The notes beneath the pieces were generated by a model. That model did no database searches. It worked only from the letters and a program-made list of their open reading frames with translations, and was not told where the DNA came from. From Promethearchaeota archaeon (GTDB taxonomy: Archaea; Asgardarchaeota; Lokiarchaeia; Sigyniarchaeales; SOKP01): a stretch of DNA of 45,557 nt. Shown in pieces: positions 16,930 through 29,233 of the stretch. Made by a program: the position numbers and the translations under genes. How positions within the stretch are numbered: the stretch's first letter is position 1; every line of letters begins with the position of its first letter. Location of the stretch: the NCBI GenBank assembly GCA_011364925.1, contig RDOA01000024.1:1-45557 (forward strand), written 5' to 3'.

Positions 16930-17742
16930 ATGGCAAAGAAAAAAATTTTAATGATGCCCGTCATTCATTCAAAGTTTAACGATAAAGATTTAGAAGCTAT
17001 ACTATTAAATAAGTCAAAAACTCTCTTAACAGAGAAAAATGGCTCCCCTCCTTCTTTTATCTTTCTGTCTGGAAGCTTTTTCGATGTTAAAGGATTCGTA
17101 TACACAGGACTTCGAGCATGGAAGGGTGCCGTAAAACCTACTGATTCTGAAGAAGGAAAAAGACCTCTACTTGAAGCTACTTTTGCATCTCTTTCAGTCT
17201 ATTTAAGTTCATTACTTGCGCTTCAAGCTGATTTTTATTTCGCACATGAAGAAATCAAAGAAATCTTATTAGAGAAGAAACGGGAAGATCTGTGGGCTAT
17301 AGTTTCAGAAAAGTTACCCTTTATTTCACTTCCTCCAAAGGAAATGTATGGAAGTCAAGTATCTCCAATATCTCCTTATTTTGTAATCGAACAGGACGAC
17401 GAACTAATTTTGGGAGAGATTTATCCTTCAGCTTATTTAACTAAAGTAATTTCAAATATTAAAACGAGATTTTTTGTGTTTTTTCAGTATCAAGGATATT
17501 CCGCTTTTGGATTTTTTGATGTTTTACCTGAACGAGCCAATTTTGGATTTGAAGAAAAAGCTCGAGAGTTTGATAAGGAGCCAACGGTGGAAAACCTGCA
17601 AAAGTATGCAAATGATGCAAAAAATTTAAAGGAAGTTCTTATTGCACTCATCGAAGCGCACAATAACGCTTATCTAGGGCAATATCTAATTGAGGACTAC
17701 GAATTATTGTTAAACAAACTACTAGAATCGGAGGAGTTCTAA
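16930..17742 (+). CDS. Hypothetical protein coupled to a small GTPase
   Basis: 270 aa ORF whose stop lies 1 nt before the GTPase ATG. Confidence 0.75.
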   Translation: MAKKKILMMPVIHSKFNDKDLEAILLNKSKTLLTEKNGSPPSFIFLSGSFFDVKGFVYTGLRAWKGAVKPTDSEEGKRPLLEATFASLSVYLSSLLALQADFYFAHEEIKEILLEKKREDLWAIVSEKLPFISLPPKEMYGSQVSPISPYFVIEQDDELILGEIYPSAYLTKVISNIKTRFFVFFQYQGYSAFGFFDVLPERANFGFEEKAREFDKEPTVENLQKYANDAKNLKEVLIALIEAHNNAYLGQYLIEDYELLLNKLLESEEF

Positions 17743-17743
17743 G

Positions 17744-18376
17744 ATGGTAAACATTGGATTGCTTGGAGATATTAGCGCCGGTAAAACGAGCATTCTTAGG
17801 CTTTTTGTTCGATATCTTAAAGTCGGAGAAATTGAAAATGTGAAAGGTGGTATAAAGTGTACTGTCGTTAAAACTGATTTTTCGGGAGAAGCGACGGTTC
17901 CGGGAGGAGAAAAAGAAGATTCGCTAAACCAGAAAGAAACCAAAACCATTCATCCTAACCGCGTGGTCTTTAGAGAAGATAGTTCGGGAAGAGCTCACAC
18001 CATCTTCGCACCTGGAGGGGATCGTGCTAGAAGCGTAATCCGTATGGGGATTATAACTATATCTCGTATCGCTACGCAGATTATAGCGGTATTTTCGTGT
18101 GACCGAGCTTTAGAAACCCAGTTTGAGTTTTTCCGCGATGTTAGGTTCTTTCCAGATAATATATATGTATGTATAAATAAGATCGATTTAATCGAAAAGG
18201 ATGCGGAGAAGAAGGTTGAAGAGTTAAAAACTAAAATCGTGGACTTTTTTAAGCAGAGGAAGATAACAGTTAAGGAGTTTTTTATAACGTGTGCTGAAGC
18301 AGTGGAGGGTTTTGAAGATGTTCAAACCTATAATGACCATACAGCAGAAATGATACTTAGTATATCTACTTCTTAA
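17744..18376 (+). CDS. Ras-superfamily/MglA-like small GTPase
   Basis: G1 GDISAGKTS, G2-like TKT, atypical G3 FAPGG, G4 NKID, G5-like TCA. Confidence 0.82.
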   Translation: MVNIGLLGDISAGKTSILRLFVRYLKVGEIENVKGGIKCTVVKTDFSGEATVPGGEKEDSLNQKETKTIHPNRVVFREDSSGRAHTIFAPGGDRARSVIRMGIITISRIATQIIAVFSCDRALETQFEFFRDVRFFPDNIYVCINKIDLIEKDAEKKVEELKTKIVDFFKQRKITVKEFFITCAEAVEGFEDVQTYNDHTAEMILSISTS

Positions 18377-18655
18377 TCTTCTTTATTTTCCATAGTTGAA
18401 ATAAAGCTTCTCCTTTTTAAAAGAGAGAAAACCAGATTTTAATATTGGGTTAGCTGTTTTTAATAATCTGTCATGGATAATATTATGGTTTCTGTGTTCT
18501 TCGTAAACTCTTAAATTTTCTATCCAATTGGCGTATTTATACGCATATTTATAATTTTTACGCCAAATTATTATAAAAGTAATTAGCTTATAATTTACTA
18601 ATATATTGATTAAAATGTGAGAAAAGAAATAGCTAAGAAGTGATTTCACAAATCT

Positions 18656-20020
18656 ATGAAAAATTTTTTTATTGTTATTGTTGCGATGGTATCCGGAATT
18701 AGTGGGATGTTATTTGGTTATGATACTGGTGTTATCTCGGGGGCTATTTTATTTATCAAGCAAGAGTATCCTCTTTTACTTCTTTTACCATTTTTACAGG
18801 AATTAGTTATTAGTGCTGTTTTAATTGGAGCAATAATCGGAGCAATTATAGGTGGATCGTTAGCTGATCGTTATGGACGAAGAAAAATGATTATTATTGC
18901 CGCAATTATTTTTGCTGGAGGTGCTATTGGAACATCATTAACATTTAATATAATATTCCTGATCATAGGAAGAGTAATTGTAGGAATTGCTATAGGGATG
19001 GCATCGTTTATTGCCCCGCTCTATATTTCTGAAATGTCTCCACCAAGGATTAGAGGATCGTTAGTGTCTTTAAATCAATTATTTATTACTATAGGAATTG
19101 TGATCTCTTACTTGGTAGATTATGCTTTAACTCCTATAAGTGGATGGCGTTATATGCTTGGTTTAGCGGCAATTCCCGCTATTATATTATTAATTGCAAT
19201 GATCTTTATGCCAAGTAGTCCGCGATGGTTAGTTAATAATGGAGAGATGGAAAAAGCACGCTCTACCTTGATTGAGATTCGAAGGACAAATGATATCAAT
19301 AATGAATTGAATGAAATTAGCACTAGTCTTGATAAGCAAAAAGGAGGGAGAAAAAACCTGTTTAATCCTTTAATAAGACCTGCAATGATTGTAGGTATAT
19401 CACTAGCGATTTTCCAACAAGTAACTGGAATTAATACCGTGATATATTATGCTCCAACCATTTTTGAATTTGCGGGATTTCAATCAGCTGCAGCAGCTAT
19501 CTTTGCTACAATCTTCGTTGGAATTGTTAATGTACTCTTTACTCTTGTTGCGATCTTTTTGTTGGATCGCGTCGGTCGGCGTAAATTGTTGTTACTTGGT
19601 TTAACTGGTATGAGTGGGATGCTTATAATGTTAGGGATCGTATTCTTTTTACCTAGTTTATTAAATCAATTAGGAACATTAGCTGCAATTAGTTTAATTT
19701 CTTATGTTGGCTTTTTTGCTATTGGGTTAGGTCCAGTTTTTTGGTTATTAATTTCCGAAATATATCCTCTAAAAGTTAGAGGTCTTGCGATGAGCATTGT
19801 GACTGTGGCTAATTGGGGATCTAATTTAATCATTGCGTTAACCTTTTTAACTCTAATTCAACTTATGGGACGTACAGGGACGTTTTGGCTTTATGCTGTT
19901 GTAGGAATATTAGCGTTAATTTTTACATATACTTATGTTCCAGAAACGAAGGGTAGAACCTTAGAAGAGATTGAAGAACATTGGCGTGGTGGAAAACATC
20001 CACGAGAATTGGGGAGATGA
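18656..20020 (+). CDS. MFS sugar porter
   Basis: FGYDTGVISGA, DRYGRR, YISEMSP, QQVTGINTVIYY, DRVGRR, GLGPVFW, VPETKGRTLEEIE. Confidence 0.95.
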   Translation: MKNFFIVIVAMVSGISGMLFGYDTGVISGAILFIKQEYPLLLLLPFLQELVISAVLIGAIIGAIIGGSLADRYGRRKMIIIAAIIFAGGAIGTSLTFNIIFLIIGRVIVGIAIGMASFIAPLYISEMSPPRIRGSLVSLNQLFITIGIVISYLVDYALTPISGWRYMLGLAAIPAIILLIAMIFMPSSPRWLVNNGEMEKARSTLIEIRRTNDINNELNEISTSLDKQKGGRKNLFNPLIRPAMIVGISLAIFQQVTGINTVIYYAPTIFEFAGFQSAAAAIFATIFVGIVNVLFTLVAIFLLDRVGRRKLLLLGLTGMSGMLIMLGIVFFLPSLLNQLGTLAAISLISYVGFFAIGLGPVFWLLISEIYPLKVRGLAMSIVTVANWGSNLIIALTFLTLIQLMGRTGTFWLYAVVGILALIFTYTYVPETKGRTLEEIEEHWRGGKHPRELGR

Positions 20021-20026
20021 TATTTT

Positions 20027-22447
20027 ATGAATCAAAAAGAAGCTTTGTCTGATGTTGAGGCACCAGGACATCCTGGAAAAGATCCCACTTGGACATCAAG
20101 TGCAAAAGATGGAGTAGGAACATCTATATCTCATGAAAGTTTAACTTGGTTTACATTATCTAACGGTATCGTTGATGAAGTATATTATCCCCGTATCGAT
20201 AAAGCAAACATTCGAGATTTTCAATTTCTTATAACTAGCGGTGCTGACTTTTTCGAAGAAGAGAAAACTGACTGTGATCATAAGATTTCAATGTTAGAAG
20301 AAGGAGTTCCTGCATATAAGATCACGAACACATCGCATAAAAAGAGGTATACGATAGAAAAAACAATTCTAACTGATCCTAGAAGGGATGTACTCTTATT
20401 AAAAGTAAAATTTACACCATTAAAAGGAAGTTTAGATGATTACCATCTCTATGCAGTTTTGAATCCTCACATCAAAAACTTCGGTTATGGAAACGATAGC
20501 TGGGTTGGTGATTATAAAGGTATCCCAATGCTTTTTGCGCAGAGAGAAGATATTGTTCTGGCATTAGGATGTTCTATACCTTTTATTAACATGAGCTGTG
20601 GATTTTATGGTATAAGCGACGGATGGCAAGATATTAATAAAAATCATATCTTATCACATCACTATTCTCGTGCTTCAAATGGAAATGTTGTTATCACTGG
20701 AGAAATTGATTTAAAAGCTAGTAATGGAAACTTTATTTTAATCGTCGCATTTGGAAATAATTCGGCAGAGGCAGGTCAACTTGTCCGTGCAGCTTTATTT
20801 AATGATATTGATCAAATAATTAAGGCTTATACGTCATCTTGGTTAGAATTTCAACAAAAATGTATGAACTTAGGCCAAATTGGAGAAAATGGTTTCAATC
20901 TTTACCGATTGAGTATTATAGTCTTGAAGACTCATATGGATAAATGTCTTTCAGATGGCACAATAGCTAGTTTATCGATCCCATGGGGATTTGCTAAAGG
21001 TGACAATGATTTAGGAGGTTATCACCTAGTGTGGCCTAGAGATCTTGTCGAGTCTGCAGGTGGGCTTTTTGCAGTGGGAGCAAATATCGAAGCTTCACAA
21101 ATCATGATTTATTTGATGAGTACTCAGAATGAAGATGGACATTGGCCTCAAAATATGTGGTTAGATGGGACTGAATATTGGCATGGTATACAAATGGATG
21201 AAACTGCTTTTCCAATATTACTTGCATATACTCTAAAAAAAAATGGTTATCTTAAAAAGATCAATATTTGGCCAACTATAAAAAAGGCTGTGAGTTATAT
21301 AGCACATAACGGCCCAGTCTCTCAAGAGGACCGATGGGAAGAAGATTCAGGTTATTCTCCATTTACTTTAGCAGTAGAAATTGCTGCTCTACTTTTAGCA
21401 TCAGAGTTTGCTAAAGAAGCAGGGGAATCTTTAATTGCTAAATATTTAACAGAGTTAGCGGACTATTGGAATTCTAATATTGAAAAATGGACATATGTTA
21501 AGAATTCACAACTTGCCAAGAGGTTGAATGTTGAAGGTTACTATGTTCGAGTAAGTCCTCCTGATGTTTCAGATGCCGCTTCTCCCAAGGATGGTTATGT
21601 TCCTATTAAGAATAGACCTCCTAGTGAAAGTAGAGCACTTTTTGAATATATTGTTAGTCCAGATGCATTAGCTTTGGTACGATTTGGATTACGTGCTGCT
21701 GACGACCCTAGAATCGTTAACACAGTAAAGATTATTGATTCCATCTTAAAAACAGAAACTTCTACAGGGCCAGTATGGCATCGTTATAATAAAGATGGAT
21801 ACGGGGAACATTTAAATGGAGATCCTTTTGATGGCACTGGAATTGGTAGGGGATGGCCTCTATTAACCGGTGAACGCGCCCATTATGAACTGGCGAAGGG
21901 TAATATTGATGGAGCAAAAAAACTTTTAAAAGTAATTGAAGCGCAAGTTGGTTCGGGAGGACTCATTCCTGAACAAATTTGGGATGCAGAAGATATACCT
22001 CACAAAAATCTTTTTAACGGTCATCCTTCAGGTTCTGCCATGCCTTTAGTCTGGGCGCATTCTGAATATGTAAAACTAGTACGGTCAATTGAAGATAACA
22101 AAATTTTTGATATGCCGTCTCAAACTAAACAGAGATATCTAAAAGAAAATCATCCTTCACACCTAAAAATATGGAAATATAATCATAAATGTTCACAAAT
22201 GAATGTAGGAAAGATTCTGCGAATCGAACTTAGAGCTGATGCCATGGTTCGATGGTCCATCGATGATTGGATAACATTTCAAGAATCTGAAACAATTGAC
22301 ACAGGTTTAGGTATCTATTACGTAGACTTACCAACTAAAGATTTAAGCGAAAAAACAAAGTTAAGTTTCACATTCCATTGGCTAGCTCGAGATCAGTGGG
22401 AAAATATTAATTATGAAATCGAATTGACTTCTAAGAATATTGGCTAA
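20027..22447 (+). CDS. GH15 glucoamylase/glucodextranase (glucan 1,4-alpha-glucosidase)
   Basis: WTSSAKDG, EVYYP, IASLSIPWG, YHLVWPRD, QMDETAFP, DRWEE, IPEQIWD, GSAMPLVWAHSEY. Confidence 0.93.
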   Translation: MNQKEALSDVEAPGHPGKDPTWTSSAKDGVGTSISHESLTWFTLSNGIVDEVYYPRIDKANIRDFQFLITSGADFFEEEKTDCDHKISMLEEGVPAYKITNTSHKKRYTIEKTILTDPRRDVLLLKVKFTPLKGSLDDYHLYAVLNPHIKNFGYGNDSWVGDYKGIPMLFAQREDIVLALGCSIPFINMSCGFYGISDGWQDINKNHILSHHYSRASNGNVVITGEIDLKASNGNFILIVAFGNNSAEAGQLVRAALFNDIDQIIKAYTSSWLEFQQKCMNLGQIGENGFNLYRLSIIVLKTHMDKCLSDGTIASLSIPWGFAKGDNDLGGYHLVWPRDLVESAGGLFAVGANIEASQIMIYLMSTQNEDGHWPQNMWLDGTEYWHGIQMDETAFPILLAYTLKKNGYLKKINIWPTIKKAVSYIAHNGPVSQEDRWEEDSGYSPFTLAVEIAALLLASEFAKEAGESLIAKYLTELADYWNSNIEKWTYVKNSQLAKRLNVEGYYVRVSPPDVSDAASPKDGYVPIKNRPPSESRALFEYIVSPDALALVRFGLRAADDPRIVNTVKIIDSILKTETSTGPVWHRYNKDGYGEHLNGDPFDGTGIGRGWPLLTGERAHYELAKGNIDGAKKLLKVIEAQVGSGGLIPEQIWDAEDIPHKNLFNGHPSGSAMPLVWAHSEYVKLVRSIEDNKIFDMPSQTKQRYLKENHPSHLKIWKYNHKCSQMNVGKILRIELRADAMVRWSIDDWITFQESETIDTGLGIYYVDLPTKDLSEKTKLSFTFHWLARDQWENINYEIELTSKNIG

Positions 22448-22523
22448 TTGATAATTAATTGAAAAACATATCAAAAAAATCATTTGGAAAGAAACTAGTG
22501 ATTGAATCAATTAATCAATCAAT

Positions 22524-23048
22524 TTAGATCTTGGATTCTTTTAATTTTAAAGATAAATTTATTAGTAATTTATGTAAATCTAATTTATAACCGATAAGGG
22601 GTGTTAGGTGGATTTGGTATGTCGTTTTGTCGATTATTAGGTATCCCTCCTTCTCAAGTTCTTTTAAATCACTCATTATATCTTTTTTATTTCTTAAGTT
22701 TCTAATTTCTTGAATTGGAGCACTCCCAGAATTTTTAAGGCAAGAAGTTAGTGTACACAATAAAGTTGCTGCTAAACTGGGCTTCCCCTCAAAAGGATTA
22801 GCTGAGATCAATTCTGTTATCTCTTTATCAGAGCTCAAATACCAATGTAAATTTAGAGAGTTAAATTTAATTTGAAGTCCTAAGGGTATGAGATAATTAG
22901 ATAATCCAACAATTAAATTCTGGAAATAAATCGACTTGTTTTTGTTTTTCACGTTTAGGATATCGAGTATCTCTTCTTCTGTAGCCCCGATTTGATATGC
23001 ACTTCTTTTTTTGCTAAGTAAGTGCATTAAAATTGACATCTCATTCAT
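22524..23048 (-). CDS. KITE subunit (tandem winged helix; Nse1/ScpB-like)
   Basis: 'LSNYLIPLGLQIKF..HWYL' and 'LKELEKEGYL..IHLTP' resemble the two wH modules of Nse1/ScpB; last gene of the SMC-kleisin operon. Confidence 0.68.
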   Translation of the reverse strand: MNEMSILMHLLSKKRSAYQIGATEEEILDILNVKNKNKSIYFQNLIVGLSNYLIPLGLQIKFNSLNLHWYLSSDKEITELISANPFEGKPSLAATLLCTLTSCLKNSGSAPIQEIRNLRNKKDIMSDLKELEKEGYLIIDKTTYQIHLTPLIGYKLDLHKLLINLSLKLKESKI

Positions 23049-23061
23049 AATTTCAAAAACC

Positions 23062-23709
23062 TCAAATATATAAACTATTAGTTTCTCTTTGGTACTTAAT
23101 TTTGCCTAATTGAAGCAAATGCAATAAATAAACAAATTTTTCGTAAATGTTTATTTGATCAATTTCATTTTCGAACACTTCTTCAAAATTACAGGGAAGT
23201 ATGTTCTTAATTTCCTCAAAAAATTCGTTAACTTTCTCAGTGAATTTAAGCTTTGGGATTTCTAATAAAAATTGGTAGTCACTTTTCTCTTTATCCAAAT
23301 GTTCAATCGCAAAATCTAAATCTTTCTCTTTACAGAAACGATCTAAAGCGTATTCTAAAAAATTGTAAGATAAAGGTTCTATTTCAAAATTAAAATTCCA
23401 GCAACCAGTAAAAATATCGTACATTTCTTTTTCATTTGGGTTTTTTTTCATAAATTCAATAAATCTCTTTTCAATATCTAATGAATTAAGCAGATTCCTC
23501 AATTCCTCGAATTTACGGTCTAATAGTTCACATACATTAATGAAACTTTTAGAGTAATTCTTAATATTGAAAGTGTTAAGTGAATCCTTTATGTCGCTGA
23601 ATATTGGCAATAATTCAAATTCTAATAAGTTAATTTTACCTAAAAGAACTTCTTCTTTAATATCTTCAATTTTTTTGTTAATCTTTTCTGAAAAATCGAT
23701 TTCTTCCAC
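23062..23709 (-). CDS. Kleisin (ScpA/Nse4-like)
   Basis: N-terminal 'VLLGKINLLEFEL' (cf. ScpA 'GEIDPWDIDI') and C-terminal wH 'EKFVYLLHLLQLGKIKYQ'; starts 2 nt after the SMC stop. Confidence 0.75.
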   Translation of the reverse strand: MEEIDFSEKINKKIEDIKEEVLLGKINLLEFELLPIFSDIKDSLNTFNIKNYSKSFINVCELLDRKFEELRNLLNSLDIEKRFIEFMKKNPNEKEMYDIFTGCWNFNFEIEPLSYNFLEYALDRFCKEKDLDFAIEHLDKEKSDYQFLLEIPKLKFTEKVNEFFEEIKNILPCNFEEVFENEIDQINIYEKFVYLLHLLQLGKIKYQRETNSLYI

Positions 23710-23711
23710 AA

Positions 23712-26700
23712 TTAATTCTCTTTTATAATTTTCGGTTTAAATATAGTAGACACTTCTTTTTTCCCCACTCTCGCAACCCCTATTAGTTTATCTGCAAGAG
23801 AGTACAATGCATTTGAAGATTTTGGGAGGAACATCAATAATTGTATAGAATTTTCTTCTAAAGTTGATTTTATCATTTCATACGAGGCTTCTGAATTCTT
23901 GTCGTCTAAAAACATACCTGCCTCGTCAAACATACATAATGGTGAAGGGTTAATTTCCTGCAGAGATAAAATTAAGCTGATTGAAATCATTGAAATTTGA
24001 CCTCCACTTAATGCAGTACAGGATTTTAATTGGTCTTTTGAAATCGCAGCTTTAATGTCTACACCCAATTCTTCAAAATCGCCTATTAACTCAAGAGTAC
24101 AATACGCCTTAATATTGGCAGAGCTAAATTTTTGGTTGATTTTAGAATTTAACTTCTTAAGAACTAATTGAAACTTATTGAAATATGTTGTTTCTAGTTT
24201 TTTTTCTGTCTTAATAGCTTCTTTTATATCTTGTTCTATATCGTTCTGATTTTTTGTGATTTCTTTTAAACCTGTGATGATTTGTTCTTTTTCTAATAAA
24301 AGTGAATCGTCCACATCTAAATAATTTAGAAGTTTTTTATCAATTTTTAATATATCTTGATTGATTTCTTCAATTGGTCGAATAACTATTTCCTCTTCTA
24401 TAATAAGCTTACCAATCTCTGAAATTATGCGCTTTAAATCAACTTTCTTCATTCCTAATTCGTGTTGTATTGAAGATTGCTTGAAGATTTCTTGCTCTAA
24501 CCTAATTTTTACTTGAATGTGAACTTTTTCAATCTCACTCTTTTCTTTTTGAATGTTAAATTTTTTTCCTTGCAATTCAGAGATGCTTGAATTAATAGAG
24601 TGAATGCCATCCTCCACATTCTCTAAGCGTCTATAAATTTCAAATGCTTTTTTATCTGAATTTTGAAATGCAGACTTTTTCTCATTGTAGTTCGCTTTAA
24701 TTGTTTTTAAATTACTTTCATTAGAATTGATATGAGTATTGATATCTTTTAGCGATTCTAAATGTTCGTTTAATTTATTTTCCCATTTCTTCAATTCTAC
24801 ATTTGTATTAGTTAATTCGTTTGGAATTTCCTTGATTCTTTTGTTCCAACTAAAGAATTCGGGCTCTTTCTGAGATTCGAAATCTTCGATTTTAGTCGAA
24901 AGTAAGTTGAGTTTTTCTTTAAATTCTATGTTTCTTTGTTCTAATGAATAAATATTATCATATAATTGATTTTTCTTTGAAGTTAATCTTTCTTTTTGTT
25001 TGAAATTAAACAAAAGGTCAGTAAACGATTCTTTTTTTCTAAATATCTCGCTCTGCGTCTTGTCATATTTAGCCTGGTTGACCTTTAGTTCTAATATCCT
25101 ATCATTTAACGAGTTAATCTCTCTTTCCAATAGTTCAGATTGTTCTTTTTGAGTACCTGGACTTAACAACCCTTTAAGCCGTTTTATATGGGGGCTTTCA
25201 TACGCATATTTATACGATATAATCTGTTTACCTTCTAAAGTAACACATTTCCCCTTGAAAGCGTTTGTTTTATAGAGTTCTTTTGCGCTAATATTATCCT
25301 TAACCACAAGACAGTTTTTAATTTTTGAATAGATAACTTTCTGAACATTCACATTGTTATTAATAATTTTAATTAACTCTACTAAGTAACCTATTACTCC
25401 AGAGGCCGTAATTTTTGGATAGGGAGTAATGTTGACCTTCTTTGGGATGTAAATATTACAATACGCATTATATTTCTTTTTTAACCTCTCTAGTAAATAT
25501 AAAGTGTCCCAGTCACTAACAATAAAACTATTGAGTAAGCGTTCTCCTAAAACCGATTCAATCGCGTAACTCAATTCGTCATTATAATTTAAATATTCGA
25601 TGATCGGACCTATTACCCGATCCTCTAATTCTCTTTTCTTAATTTCCTCTTTTAGAATGCTAATATTAGGCGACAAAACGATTCTACGTTCTCTTAATGC
25701 CATTTGCAGCGTTTTAAACTTTTGCATCTTTTTCGATTTTTCGTACCCTAATCGCTCGATTTCAGTTCCACATTTTAAAATGTTAACAGTAATACTCTTT
25801 AGATCCTTATCTAATTGTTTTAATAAATCGTTAGATGGATTTTCTAAGAACCATTTATTTTTTTCTAATTTATGATTGATGTCCATCAAACTCTGGAATA
25901 TATCGTTAATATCTTTTTTAGTGTTTTCAATGCTGTTTTCATTCTCTTTGACACTTTTTTTGTGTCCTTCTCTTTCATTGATCAACTCGTTATATTTCGC
26001 TAAGAATTCTTCATTCTCCTTAATTATCCTTATAAGATCGTTTTGTTCCTCAATAAGTTTGTCAATTTTACTCTTTACAATTTGCTTTTTATTTTTTACT
26101 AATTTGATTTCTTCATCGAACTTTTTTTTTTGGGCTTTAATTTTTTTTAATAAATTCTCTTGTTCAGAGATTTTTACTGATATTTCATCCAATTCTTGCT
26201 TTGCAATAATTTTCTCTTTTTGCCATGTGTCAATTTTTTTTATTAATTCGTTTTTCTTATATTCTAACTCGCCTATTTTTTTTGATAGGGTGTTCAGATC
26301 GCTATCAATATCAACTACCACTTTTTCTTTCTCTAAAATTAAGTTTCGATAATTATCAACCTCATTAGTAATTGAATCTATTTTTTTTTGGCTTTCCTGG
26401 AATGATATCTCGAGATTTTCAATCTCTTTTTCTAATAAATCTCTATTAGCCCATAATAATTCGTCCGTGAACTTTTTTCTCACACCCAATAGTTCTTTTT
26501 TCTCGTTTAATCTTTCTAATTTTGGTGTTAATAAATCCAAGTTGAAATTTAATGTGTTTTTTCTCGTTACTAATGATCGAAGTTCAGTGTCTAAAGATAA
26601 TACTCCATACTTTTGTTGAAGTATCTCCTCTCTTAGTCCCTTTAGCCCTATACCCTCTTCTAAGAAAGAACACAGCTCAAAAGGTTTCAAGCTCTTGATG

Positions 26701-27203
26701 GCATCGATTTTACCTTGACTCACAAATGCGAATTGGTTGTCTGGATTAATTTTTAACTCATTTACCAGTTTTTGAATTTCATTAACATGGATTTTCTTAA
26801 AATCTGGGTCATGTTCGCGTTGAATTTCAAAAAAAGGGGATTTTCCTCTTATTACTGTCCTTCGAACTTTTACAATCTCACCATAATGTTGAATATGAAG
26901 CTCGACCATAGCGTGATCTTGGTCATTTCTAATGAAATCCGACCACTTTTTATATCTTTCATCTCTCTCATTGCTTCCCAAAGCGAATTTAATTGCTTGG
27001 AAAATTGATGTTTTTCCACTCCAATTCGGTCCAATGATTAAAATAAACCTAGGAAATTCTTTTTTTTGTGGTATTGAAAAATCAATTTCGTCTCTTTGGA
27101 AAGATAAAAAGTTTTCTAAAAGAACTTTGCGAAGGAATGTATCCTTTTCCATTATTTGATTCTTCGAAACTTTTTTTTCTTTATTTTTAGACGAAATTGC
27201 CAT
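23712..27203 (-). CDS. smc: SMC ATPase, Smc5/6-like
   Basis: Walker A GPNWSGKT, Q-loop 'NPDNQFAFVSQG', two long coiled coils, hinge 'VIGPIIEYL..AIESVLG..LNSFIV', signature LSGGQ, Walker B/D-loop 'SPLCMFDEAGMFLD'; AGGTGA RBS. Confidence 0.9.
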   Translation of the reverse strand: MAISSKNKEKKVSKNQIMEKDTFLRKVLLENFLSFQRDEIDFSIPQKKEFPRFILIIGPNWSGKTSIFQAIKFALGSNERDERYKKWSDFIRNDQDHAMVELHIQHYGEIVKVRRTVIRGKSPFFEIQREHDPDFKKIHVNEIQKLVNELKINPDNQFAFVSQGKIDAIKSLKPFELCSFLEEGIGLKGLREEILQQKYGVLSLDTELRSLVTRKNTLNFNLDLLTPKLERLNEKKELLGVRKKFTDELLWANRDLLEKEIENLEISFQESQKKIDSITNEVDNYRNLILEKEKVVVDIDSDLNTLSKKIGELEYKKNELIKKIDTWQKEKIIAKQELDEISVKISEQENLLKKIKAQKKKFDEEIKLVKNKKQIVKSKIDKLIEEQNDLIRIIKENEEFLAKYNELINEREGHKKSVKENENSIENTKKDINDIFQSLMDINHKLEKNKWFLENPSNDLLKQLDKDLKSITVNILKCGTEIERLGYEKSKKMQKFKTLQMALRERRIVLSPNISILKEEIKKRELEDRVIGPIIEYLNYNDELSYAIESVLGERLLNSFIVSDWDTLYLLERLKKKYNAYCNIYIPKKVNITPYPKITASGVIGYLVELIKIINNNVNVQKVIYSKIKNCLVVKDNISAKELYKTNAFKGKCVTLEGKQIISYKYAYESPHIKRLKGLLSPGTQKEQSELLEREINSLNDRILELKVNQAKYDKTQSEIFRKKESFTDLLFNFKQKERLTSKKNQLYDNIYSLEQRNIEFKEKLNLLSTKIEDFESQKEPEFFSWNKRIKEIPNELTNTNVELKKWENKLNEHLESLKDINTHINSNESNLKTIKANYNEKKSAFQNSDKKAFEIYRRLENVEDGIHSINSSISELQGKKFNIQKEKSEIEKVHIQVKIRLEQEIFKQSSIQHELGMKKVDLKRIISEIGKLIIEEEIVIRPIEEINQDILKIDKKLLNYLDVDDSLLLEKEQIITGLKEITKNQNDIEQDIKEAIKTEKKLETTYFNKFQLVLKKLNSKINQKFSSANIKAYCTLELIGDFEELGVDIKAAISKDQLKSCTALSGGQISMISISLILSLQEINPSPLCMFDEAGMFLDDKNSEASYEMIKSTLEENSIQLLMFLPKSSNALYSLADKLIGVARVGKKEVSTIFKPKIIKEN

Positions 27204-27224
27204 TCTTCTTCACCTAATTTGGCA

Positions 27225-28478
27225 TCATTTCCCAAATGCTCGTTTTAAATTATCTACGCGTTTTTTTGCTTTTTCTAAGTTAACTTGAGCCATTTTAGGG
27301 CTATCGTTTAAAATGAATGCGTATTGCGCAATTAACTTTCTATCATTTTCTTCCAACTTCTCTTGCTTATTTAACTTATCAATAACGAGTATTAATTCGC
27401 TATAATTTTTCGAAACTGCATTTTCGTATAGTTGATCGCGCATAAATTCAGAAAATCTTTCCTCTTTTATCATATTGAGCAGTTCAGTTGAAATGGTACT
27501 TTCCGAACTCTCACTCTTTCCTTTTTTGAAAGCTTTATTTTGTACTTTTTGATTCTCATCAACATCATTATACAATAATTTCTGTTCTCCTTGTTCTCGT
27601 GAAATGGAAGGAATATATTCTCCTGATTCTATTAAATCAATCAATATATCTGTAATTTCGTTGCTAGAGTCGTTTAACTCAGAATTAAGAAACTGCTTAA
27701 AGATACCAATTTTTAATAATTGATTAATGTCTTTCACTTCCCATTTATCTGTATATTCCACCAGGGTTTTAATTTCAAACGAAATTTTTGGATTTTTCTC
27801 AGCAAAGTTTCTGAAAATGGTTTCCCTCTCAATTTTGTCAAGTAAAGGGATTTTTATAAATAGATCAAAAACTTCAAAGATTAATCTCGAATTTACTTCG
27901 ATCTCTTTGATATTGTTGTTAATCCAGATGAATAATAAACCCGCTTTGATCATCATCTTCTTGTCTTTGACCGATGTCATAAATAATTCCAAAAGGTTTC
28001 TCTTGTATGGTTGTATGTTAGAAAAATTCTCTTGGTTAATTAAGAATATTCCCCCAATTTTACCTTCTCCTTGTTGTTCCTCTGTTGTTTGAGAACTTTT
28101 TTTATGAGACTCCTCAAATTGAATCAAAGAGTCCAAAATGAATGAAAAGTTGTTGTAAAACTCATCGGGGGTTTTAATTATCTCTTCATGATTCAGTTCA
28201 TAAAAGTTTAAATAATAATTTTTAGAAATTAGCTTTAAATAATCAACTACATCTGTTCCTACACTAATATTAATGATAATAGCTCCGTTTGGTTGAATAA
28301 ACTTGTTATAACTCTGTACGATTGTTTCTTCGTGGTTAGTTAACATTATTTTCAGATAGTTAATAATATCGTTATACTTATCGCGATAAAAAATCTCCTC
28401 CCTATCAATTTCAATTTCATTAGGTGTAATTATCCGATAGTACTTAGAAAGATCAATATCGTTATCTATATCTGCCAT
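27225..28478 (-). CDS. Degenerate (probably ATPase-dead) classic AAA+ domain protein
   Basis: Looks like a CDC48/FtsH-type AAA scaffold ('PNGAIIINISVGTD', 'FYELN', 'FDLFIKIPLLDKIERETIF', 'LVEYTDKWEVKDINQL') but lacks GKT, DE and the Arg finger. Confidence 0.62.
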   Translation of the reverse strand: MADIDNDIDLSKYYRIITPNEIEIDREEIFYRDKYNDIINYLKIMLTNHEETIVQSYNKFIQPNGAIIINISVGTDVVDYLKLISKNYYLNFYELNHEEIIKTPDEFYNNFSFILDSLIQFEESHKKSSQTTEEQQGEGKIGGIFLINQENFSNIQPYKRNLLELFMTSVKDKKMMIKAGLLFIWINNNIKEIEVNSRLIFEVFDLFIKIPLLDKIERETIFRNFAEKNPKISFEIKTLVEYTDKWEVKDINQLLKIGIFKQFLNSELNDSSNEITDILIDLIESGEYIPSISREQGEQKLLYNDVDENQKVQNKAFKKGKSESSESTISTELLNMIKEERFSEFMRDQLYENAVSKNYSELILVIDKLNKQEKLEENDRKLIAQYAFILNDSPKMAQVNLEKAKKRVDNLKRAFGK

Positions 28479-28834
28479 AGAGAATTTCCTTTTAATGATA
28501 TTTATTTTTTTCTAACATTATTTCCATGTCAATTCTCACATATATATTTAGCGTTTGATTACTTACCGACAAAAACTCAATCATTTATATATCTTGATTT
28601 AAAATATCAAGATCTTAATTAAGTAATTTAGAACAAAATTTAATGTAAAAAGAGTTGTCTAGTTTTCAAAATTTAATTGATTATAACAATTAAAGAGCAT
28701 AAGGTTATAGTTTTCCAATAAATAATACAACATTATATTGCGTTTAAGAGAAAAATGCCTAAAACTCATTTAGAAATTATTATGATTAAAAGGTAAAAGA
28801 TTTAATAGCTTAATTTCTGAATGTGCGAGAATCT

Positions 28835-29233
28835 TTAAAGCGATAAAATTTCATTAAGGATTTCTAAATTTTGGTCTACTTCTTCCCTAAACAAGTGATA
28901 ATAAGTGAATTTTTGTTTTTTATACCCCTGTATAATGCCAGCTGCGACTAATTTTCTTAAATGATGAGATATGGTAGATTGGGACTTATTTAAAATGGCT
29001 TCTAATTCACAAACGCACCTATCTTGATCCTTTAAAGCTTTTATTATGATTAATCGCTCCTTAGATGAAATCGCAGATGTAAACCTTTCAATCGTATTTA
29101 AATTTGTATTTTCTTCTAAATTATTTCCCAATTTTAATAAATTTTCAAATACAATATCTGAATTTGATAGATTTCTACAAGAGCATAACTTTTTTTTTAT
29201 TTCTAATGTTTTTCTTTGTGTTATAAGAACCAC
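28835..29233 (-). CDS. arsR: ArsR/SmtB family metalloregulator
   Basis: RLIII, DRCVCEL (As-binding CVC), SQSTISHHL; extra N-terminal CSC; divergent from acr3. Start codon uncertain. Confidence 0.9.
   Translation of the reverse strand: MVLITQRKTLEIKKKLCSCRNLSNSDIVFENLLKLGNNLEENTNLNTIERFTSAISSKERLIIIKALKDQDRCVCELEAILNKSQSTISHHLRKLVAAGIIQGYKKQKFTYYHLFREEVDQNLEILNEILSL

Follow-up and report, generated by a model that had tools for sequence, protein, structure and literature searches.

The 45,557-nt contig RDOA01000024.1 of Promethearchaeota archaeon (assembly GCA_011364925.1, Lokiarchaeia, Sigyniarchaeales), analysed here in its full length and called the window below, belongs to a genome of 3.9 Mb assembled in 112 contigs with ~33% G+C. 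On its minus strand four genes follow one another head to tail with gaps of 21, 2 and 13 nt (Table 1). In the direction of reading they encode a protein with the fold of classical AAA ATPases (gene 1), a non-canonical SMC protein (gene 2), a probable kleisin (gene 3) and a kite protein (gene 4). This layout, taken from the map of open reading frames (ORFs), agrees with an earlier sequence-only reading of the locus, which had described it as a four-gene Smc5/6-like operon; the three SMC strings quoted there (KINPDNQFAFVSQGKI, GPIIEYLNYNDELSYAIESVLGERLLNSFIV and SPLCMFDEAGMFLD) were all found in the translation.

Table 1. Coordinates in the window of the four genes, their principal motifs and domains, and the upstream spacer
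Feature	Position	Strand	Size or residues	Remarks
Pseudo-AAA gene (gene 1)	27225..28478	-	417 aa	
Degenerate Walker A of gene 1, VGTDVV	28245..28262	-	aa 73-78	alignment with orthologues; intact form PGTGKT
Degenerate Walker B of gene 1, IFLINQEN	28026..28049	-	aa 144-151	alignment; intact orthologue ILFLDEFD
C-terminal helical domain of pseudo-AAA	27228..27461	-	aa 340-417	alignments, model
SMC gene (gene 2)	23712..27203	-	1163 aa	non-canonical 'SMC-II' type
SMC Walker A, GPNWSGKT	27009..27032	-	aa 58-65	sequence, alignment
SMC Q-loop region, FAFVSQGK	26709..26732	-		Q163 invariant in family
SMC hinge	25275..25619	-	aa 529-643	Pfam PF06470, 25.5 bits, E 1.9e-5, above cut-off
SMC signature LSGGQ through Walker B/D-loop LCMFDEAGMFLD	23904..24011	-	aa 1065-1069 through aa 1089-1100	family alignment
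Kleisin gene (gene 3)	23062..23709	-	215 aa	GTG start
Kite gene (gene 4)	22524..23048	-	174 aa	tandem winged helix
AT-rich intergenic spacer, presumed operon promoter	28479..28834	-	356 nt	sequence read directly

Neither Pfam nor NCBIfam gave a match to the protein of gene 1 taken alone. Its fold was recognized at the level of the family: the profile of 20 members found p97/VCP D2, Cdc48, Vps4 and CdvC among PDB structures with E values from 1e-10 to 1e-6, Foldseek of the AlphaFold2 (AF2) model (mean confidence, pLDDT, 77.6) returned p97 D2, FtsH, PAN and Vps4 with E about 1e-8, and six orthologues (P0206, P0211, P0215, P0220, P0231 and P0232) pass Pfam AAA (PF00004). By family profile and Foldseek, therefore, gene 1 has the alpha/beta core and the lid domain of the classical clade represented by Cdc48/p97 D2, Vps4/CdvC, FtsH and PAN. 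It differs from this clade in consisting of a single AAA module without an N-terminal substrate domain but with a family-specific C-terminal helical domain, and in having lost all catalytic motifs. The Walker A segment reads ISVGTDVV in place of GPPGTGKT in an intact orthologue and the arginine-finger segment FEVFD in place of RRFD, so that neither the lysine of Walker A nor the glutamate of Walker B nor the arginine fingers remain and the protein is a pseudo-ATPase, as had been suspected from its letters alone. This state is not peculiar to one genome: the GxxxxGK[ST] pattern is missing from 118 of 119 close homologues, 115 of which carry G[ST]D.

Across Asgard archaea the catalytic motifs form a graded series. 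Orthologues of Odinarchaeota keep all of them (GPPGTGKT, ILFLDE and RRFD); in the Asgard family f20 Walker A is intact (GRSGTGKT) and Walker B ends with DN (ILFIDN); Helarchaeales have Walker A only; and the proteins of Thor and Loki have none. Conservation within the family is highest in the C-terminal helical domain, which the Odinarchaeal orthologue with intact motifs has as well; matches of gene 1 in distant genomes fall mainly on residues 335-414. In the model this domain is built of helices 344-370, 377-391 and 394-415 and is joined to the AAA body by a disordered, low-confidence linker of ~45 residues (aa 295-339).

The association of this gene with the three that follow was traced by tblastn with all four proteins and by profile searches. 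The same four-gene order is common to 19 loci of the genus, where nearly all genomes (22 of 24) have the operon in syntenic form, and to seven loci in three other families of the order (two loci stop inside the SMC gene). It was found as well in Thor-like contigs (L039-L042) and in metagenome-assembled genomes of Odinarchaeota (L043) and Helarchaeales (L045), and is kept in all loci examined across four Lokiarchaeal families and these three further groups. Such a recurrence in the genus, in the order and in Thor-like and Odinarchaeota contigs means that the arrangement is not due to chance. An exhaustive search with the gene 1 profile gave 398 representatives; the distant ones are ~356-374 aa long and lie directly upstream of a ~1120-aa SMC gene, which is followed by genes for ~215-245 and ~170 aa. 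Viewed from the other end of the operon, in 121 Asgard genomes that served as a common sample for the AAA and kite profiles, the kite was detected in 52; in 34 of these the AAA and kite genes are 4-7 kb apart on one contig, while in six they are on different contigs of fragmented assemblies. Of four apparent exceptions that were inspected, one is truncated by the end of its contig, and in the other three smc is directly preceded by an AAA-family gene. Thus, at every examined kite locus with enough flanking sequence an AAA-family gene stands directly upstream of smc. In several relatives 4-11 nt are shared by the AAA and smc ORFs, which suggests translational coupling. One variant of the operon, in a genome of family f20 (G078, L132:6694-11701), consists of a 459-aa AAA gene, a shortened 835-aa SMC gene and genes for 218 and 172 aa.

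A second, 'SMC5/6-related' operon of SMC, kleisin and kite genes has already been described in TACK and Asgard archaea (Yoshinaga & Inagaki 2021, PMC8665677; van Hooff, Raas, Tromer & Eme, bioRxiv 10.1101/2024.01.07.573240). Both works propose this archaeal operon as the source of eukaryotic Smc5/6, and their trees place the second SMC, kleisin and kite of TACK and Asgard archaea with Smc5/6, Nse4 and Nse1/3. The locus studied here resembles the published ones in lying, with its own SMC, kleisin and kite genes, beside a canonical set in an Asgard genome, in the non-canonical character of its SMC and in having a kleisin and a kite without ScpA/ScpB Pfam matches. It differs from them in the number of genes, three there against a constant classical-AAA-derived fourth one here, and the assignment of the kite to the Nse1/3 type was not confirmed by our tests. 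The AAA gene is mentioned in neither publication, the term 'AAA' being absent from the preprint text, and full-text literature searches yielded no paper in which an AAA protein is paired with an archaeal SMC operon. Thus, the SMC-kleisin-kite core is already published, while the constant AAA-derived fourth gene with its series from active to dead forms is new, being found in no paper. Of the earlier suggestion of a proto-Smc5/6 complex with a fourth, undescribed subunit, the first half was therefore anticipated in print and the second is right as to the partner, whose status of a subunit is suggested by gene linkage only.

Based on these data the locus is best explained, with a probability that we put at about 0.6, as encoding a second, non-canonical Asgard SMC-kleisin-kite complex of the 'SMC5/6-related' type together with a dedicated accessory protein derived from classical AAA ATPases. 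The most serious alternative takes the operon for a fast-evolving, Asgard-specific duplicate of the canonical Smc-ScpA-ScpB condensin that bears no special relation to Smc5/6 and to which the AAA protein was added as an Asgard innovation. The three core proteins are considered in turn.

Gene 2 encodes a real SMC protein, with intact ATPase motifs and a hinge. Pfam SMC_N (PF02463) spans its residues 23-1148 with 67.8 bits, and S1066, G1068, D1093 and E1094 are invariant in the alignment of AAA-linked SMCs. It stays far below the cut-offs of the canonical equivalogs, with 177.3 bits against 567 for TIGR02168 and 157.4 against 729 for TIGR02169; a canonical Lokiarchaeal SMC, for comparison, scores 828. 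A separate canonical smc-scpAB set, whose presence the sequence-only reading had proposed to check, was indeed found in the genome: contig C49 carries at 17660-25580 (L048) a gene for a 1488-aa canonical-type SMC with ScpA-like and ScpB genes. This SMC is unusually long and passes only the TIGR02168 cut-off. In other Lokiarchaeal families there is a third, fully canonical SMC of 1200 aa with ScpB (G025:C3, L046; G027:C182, L047), so that the number of SMC paralogues varies within the order.

Phylogeny of the head domains places gene 2 outside the canonical clade, not inside it. The maximum-likelihood tree (30 taxa, 323 columns, LG+F+R4, taken without eukaryotic SMC sequences) was rooted on the Rad50 homologue of this genome, a short protein (701 aa) matched only at its N- and C-terminal head parts (contig C38, 19970-22075, minus strand). 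One clade (98.6/95) unites the AAA-linked SMCs of Loki, Thor and Odin, another (91.9/90) all canonical archaeal and bacterial Smc proteins; the latter excludes the SMC of gene 2, which weighs against a condensin duplicate. The AAA-linked clade is weakly sister (47.9/66) to mini-SMCs of TACK archaea (Bathyarchaeota, Thermofilales), which are hinge-poor proteins of 639-676 aa encoded in three-gene operons (L052:4929-8257, L055:5028-8351 and L056:294-3982). These loci came from a generic P-loop pattern search with the SMC alignment, the matches of which were mostly bacterial or canonical SMCs. The N-terminal head profile also sets gene 2 closer to them, scoring TACK mini-SMCs at 90-115 bits and canonical SMCs at 55-81, whereas for the C-terminal half of the head the nearest protein is Pyrococcus Smc, as the duplicate would have it. 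An AAA gene was found upstream of the mini-SMC operon in none of the three loci, which are too few to speak of a TACK-wide absence.

Similarity to eukaryotic SMCs was estimated in bits against solved structures. The profile of the AAA-linked family gave 248 for Smc4, 235 for Smc2, 220 for Smc3, 179 for Smc1, 182 for Smc5 and 179 for Smc6. The control with a canonical Lokiarchaeal SMC, drawn from 60 listed rows among which Smc5 is absent, gave 227 for Smc4, 229 for Smc2, 227 for Smc3, 211 for Smc1 and 48 for Smc6. Thus, the canonical protein is 4-5 times nearer to Smc1-4 than to structures of the Smc6 side, whereas that of gene 2 is about equidistant from Smc5/6 and Smc1-4. Equidistance fits a position outside the lineage of canonical Smc and Smc1-4, which speaks against the duplicate, but is no proof of affinity to Smc5/6; in absolute bits Smc2, Smc3 and Smc4 still exceed Smc5 and Smc6, which speaks for it. 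The D-loop FDExxxFLD and the GK[ST]S after the P-loop presumably resemble those of Smc6/Smc5. A search of PDB with the short H-loop segment gave no match and left the comparison of its FLPK with 'TPK' of Smc5 unconfirmed. All this supports the classification of gene 2 as a non-canonical SMC and gives indirect support to a specific Smc5/6 affinity, so that the earlier impression of an SMC closer to Smc5/6 than to canonical Smc was correct as regards its separation from the latter and went too far as regards absolute similarity.

The kleisin is encoded between the smc and kite genes and has a conserved C-terminal helix FVYLLHLLQLG. Moderate profile evidence identifies it as such: in hhalign the family profile matched the alignment of canonical ScpA over its full length (196 columns) with a probability of 50% and E 1.6e-4, and the nearest named clusters found by a protein language model are all kleisins, carrying Nse4_C, ScpA or Rad21. 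The assignment by the sequence-only reading was thus sustained, and profiles favour the canonical side, since the match to TACK kleisins hinting at Nse4_C reached 2.7%. These TACK hints are two sub-threshold Nse4_C matches (E 0.003 and 0.008) among three mini-SMC kleisins. Pfam Nse4_C itself gave no match in 15 members of the kleisin family. Among the language-model neighbours, which may serve as leads only, the nearest named Atlas cluster (score 0.91) is from Bathyarchaeota and has Nse4_C in 18% of its members, which points away from the condensin duplicate, and is followed by eukaryotic Nse4 (0.83) and ScpA (0.82). Against PDB the kleisin alignment produced a weak, non-significant match to the C-terminal fragment of Pyrococcus ScpA (4i99_C, E 0.65). 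When the kleisin and kite profiles were compared by hhalign with the single sequences of this genome's ScpA and ScpB, nothing was found, alignments being needed for these matches.

The kite is confirmed by its AF2 model, two winged-helix domains in tandem with pLDDT 86.9, by its position next to the kleisin and by full-length structural matches to ScpB, Nse1, JetB and MukE; almost all of the top Foldseek matches are kites (ScpB, JetB, Nse1/3, MAGE, MukE). Its previous designation as an Nse1-like protein without the RING was not borne out. By structure comparison (VIA) it is nearest to ScpB, with Z 12.2 and 11.9 over ~150 residues at 3.3-3.6 A, against Z 8.9 for Nse1 and 7.9 for JetB, and in hhalign the family matched canonical archaeal ScpB at 85% (E 6e-6) against 64% (E 6e-5) for TACK kites that hint at MAGE, a hint consisting of one sub-threshold match (E 3.6e-4) among three. 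Pfam ScpB was matched by two of 13 family members (best E 1.2e-6), Nse1 or MAGE by none of the 13, and the Nse1 model found nothing in the whole genome; the profile search of PDB with the kite alignment had no significant match. Since canonical ScpB and the TACK kites barely match each other (2.5%) while the kite family matches both, it looks intermediate between them.

Several of these observations weigh against an Smc5/6-related complex. The resemblance of kleisin and kite to Nse4 and MAGE is no greater than that to ScpA and ScpB, and all the comparisons of the two proteins that favour the canonical side, together with the higher bits on Smc2/3/4 and the C-terminal half of the head, are what the condensin duplicate would predict. 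The sister grouping with TACK mini-SMCs is only weakly supported and may be due to long-branch attraction. It is thus the literature, together with indirect tests, that supports the label 'SMC5/6-related', which at the level of kleisin and kite is less secure than the literature summary suggests. In architecture the locus shares with prokaryotic Smc-ScpA-ScpB its three parts, and with eukaryotic Smc5/6 and Nse1-Nse3-Nse4 the same combination of SMC, kleisin and kite. It is unlike the eukaryotic complex in having one SMC gene and one kite gene, whose products are presumably homodimers, and no RING, Nse2 SUMO ligase or Nse5/6. To our knowledge, neither Smc5/6 nor Smc-ScpAB has an AAA-type partner. 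The exclusion of gene 2 from the canonical clade, the preference of its N-terminal head, its equidistance from the two groups of eukaryotic SMCs, the Nse4_C lead and the published trees make a mere duplicate of condensin unlikely.

If the locus does encode a second complex, its working cycle would be that of the SMC family. The SMC would homodimerize through the hinge and engage its heads on ATP, as family knowledge and the intact ATPase motifs imply; by the same knowledge the kleisin would bridge two heads, binding one neck with its N-terminal helices and the other cap with its C-terminal winged helix, a kite dimer would sit on the middle of the kleisin, and the ring thus closed would entrap or extrude DNA under ATP control. 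The AAA-derived gene is probably coupled to smc in translation, as the overlaps suggest. Having lost the lysine of Walker A, the glutamate of Walker B and the arginine fingers, the Lokiarchaeal protein should not bind or hydrolyze ATP in the usual way; it keeps the AAA shape, with the conserved C-terminal helical domain on a flexible linker. One can assume that the protein is attached to the SMC complex or to DNA by this domain, while its AAA body serves as a regulator or loader without catalytic activity. Because of linkage, coupling and conservation of a non-catalytic protein it is expected to work with the ring, and gene linkage makes a role as fourth subunit or regulator of this complex probable. 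The complete set of motifs in Odinarchaeal orthologues makes it probable that the ancestor of the protein actively remodelled the ring. A bolder version, in which the AAA protein belongs to an Asgard-wide Smc5/6-related complex as a genuine subunit, be it stoichiometric or regulatory, and was originally an unfoldase-type ring-opening loader/unloader (a state that would persist in Odinarchaeota) and reduced to an ATP-independent gatekeeper in Loki and Thor, can be put forward only tentatively.

The gene could also be merely a conserved neighbour, for instance a co-regulated chaperone-like protein with no part in the SMC complex or in its regulation. Fused or longer proteins containing the C-terminal domain of gene 1 were not found (weak evidence), which counts against a dedicated partner. 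Prediction of a complex from the halves of the SMC head (aa 21-215 and 985-1163), the kleisin and the pseudo-AAA protein (aa 9-417) gave ipSAE 0.00 in both runs and is uninformative either way. Nevertheless, the neighbour hypothesis seems improbable: the gene lies immediately upstream of smc, on the same strand and often overlapping it, in at least four Asgard classes in which all other flanking genes differ, and, for all its dead motifs, the protein is preserved in intact form in hundreds of sequence clusters, a sign of selection for a role that is non-enzymatic and probably one of binding.

An immunity system of the Wadjet/Lamassu kind, which would act against plasmids or viruses instead of organizing the chromosome and use the AAA-like protein as a sensor or effector adaptor, is very improbable: SMC, kleisin and kite with one extra gene do repeat the four-gene layout of Wadjet (JetABCD) and MksBEFG, JetB is among the structural matches of the kite, eukaryotic Smc5/6 restricts extrachromosomal DNA (PMC10586767) and G+C falls to 0.28-0.30 over 22501-29000 against about 0.34-0.35 in both flanks, but the extra protein is a dead AAA and not a Toprim nuclease, the gene order differs, Pfam found no nuclease or effector gene of the JetD-like Toprim or LmuA type in the four ORFs of the operon or in ten neighbouring ones, and vertical conservation of the operon, syntenic in the order and present in nearly all genomes of the genus, fits housekeeping inheritance rather than patchy defence islands. 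The low G+C is likely a compositional effect of coiled-coil coding rich in Lys, Glu and Asn rather than a sign of recent transfer.

The loading of SMC rings on DNA and their release from it are a central unsolved problem of the field, and all SMC regulators that we know of (Scc2/4, WAPL-Pds5, Nse5/6, ParB, MatP) are confined to particular lineages. No known organisms are more closely related to the eukaryotic host cell than Asgard archaea, which carry an SMC complex regarded as related to Smc5/6. If real, a conserved AAA-derived partner of this complex would be a new kind of SMC accessory factor, and its active state in some Asgard lineages and dead state in others would provide a natural experimental series.

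The surroundings of the operon vary between lineages. In Thor-like and other Asgard genomes it is adjoined by a gene for a MoxR-like AAA_5 protein with a ~570-aa partner (L039:4394-7822, L133:1323-4804, L135:1978-5290); in L135 the pair is on the same strand as the operon, making a string of six genes, and in the genome studied here it is unlinked to the operon (contig C25, 27288-30753). Two genes upstream of the operon in another Lokiarchaeal family (G038) there is a gene for a 1176-aa HEAT-repeat protein (L022:2229-5759, plus strand). The Pfam model Cnd1 (condensin subunit 1) matches it above the cut-off (7.5e-10) and that of the stromalin domain SCD at 1.9e-5; L021 and L026 have similar ORFs, 1154-1213 aa long. 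This protein is hawk-like, and in the genome of the window it has a weak match only, on contig C42. Hawks were reported as not found in prokaryotes (van Hooff et al., bioRxiv 10.1101/2024.01.07.573240). Among the TACK mini-SMC operons, that of L052 is flanked on both sides by genes for Lhr-type helicases of ~945 aa, and that of L056 has on one side a 945-aa ORF likened to them by size alone.

In the window itself the Pfam scan of the ten neighbouring ORFs assigned the surroundings of the operon to an ArsR regulator, transporters, a methyltransferase and a glucoamylase. The ArsR-family gene with a helix-turn-helix motif (28835-29233, minus strand) is on the same strand, directly upstream of the AT-rich spacer, and is kept there in 10 loci of the genus. 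Reading of the spacer sequence revealed a palindrome, ATCTTGAT...ATCAAGAT, near positions 28585-28612. The ArsR-family protein may, together with this palindrome, be a candidate local regulator of the operon.

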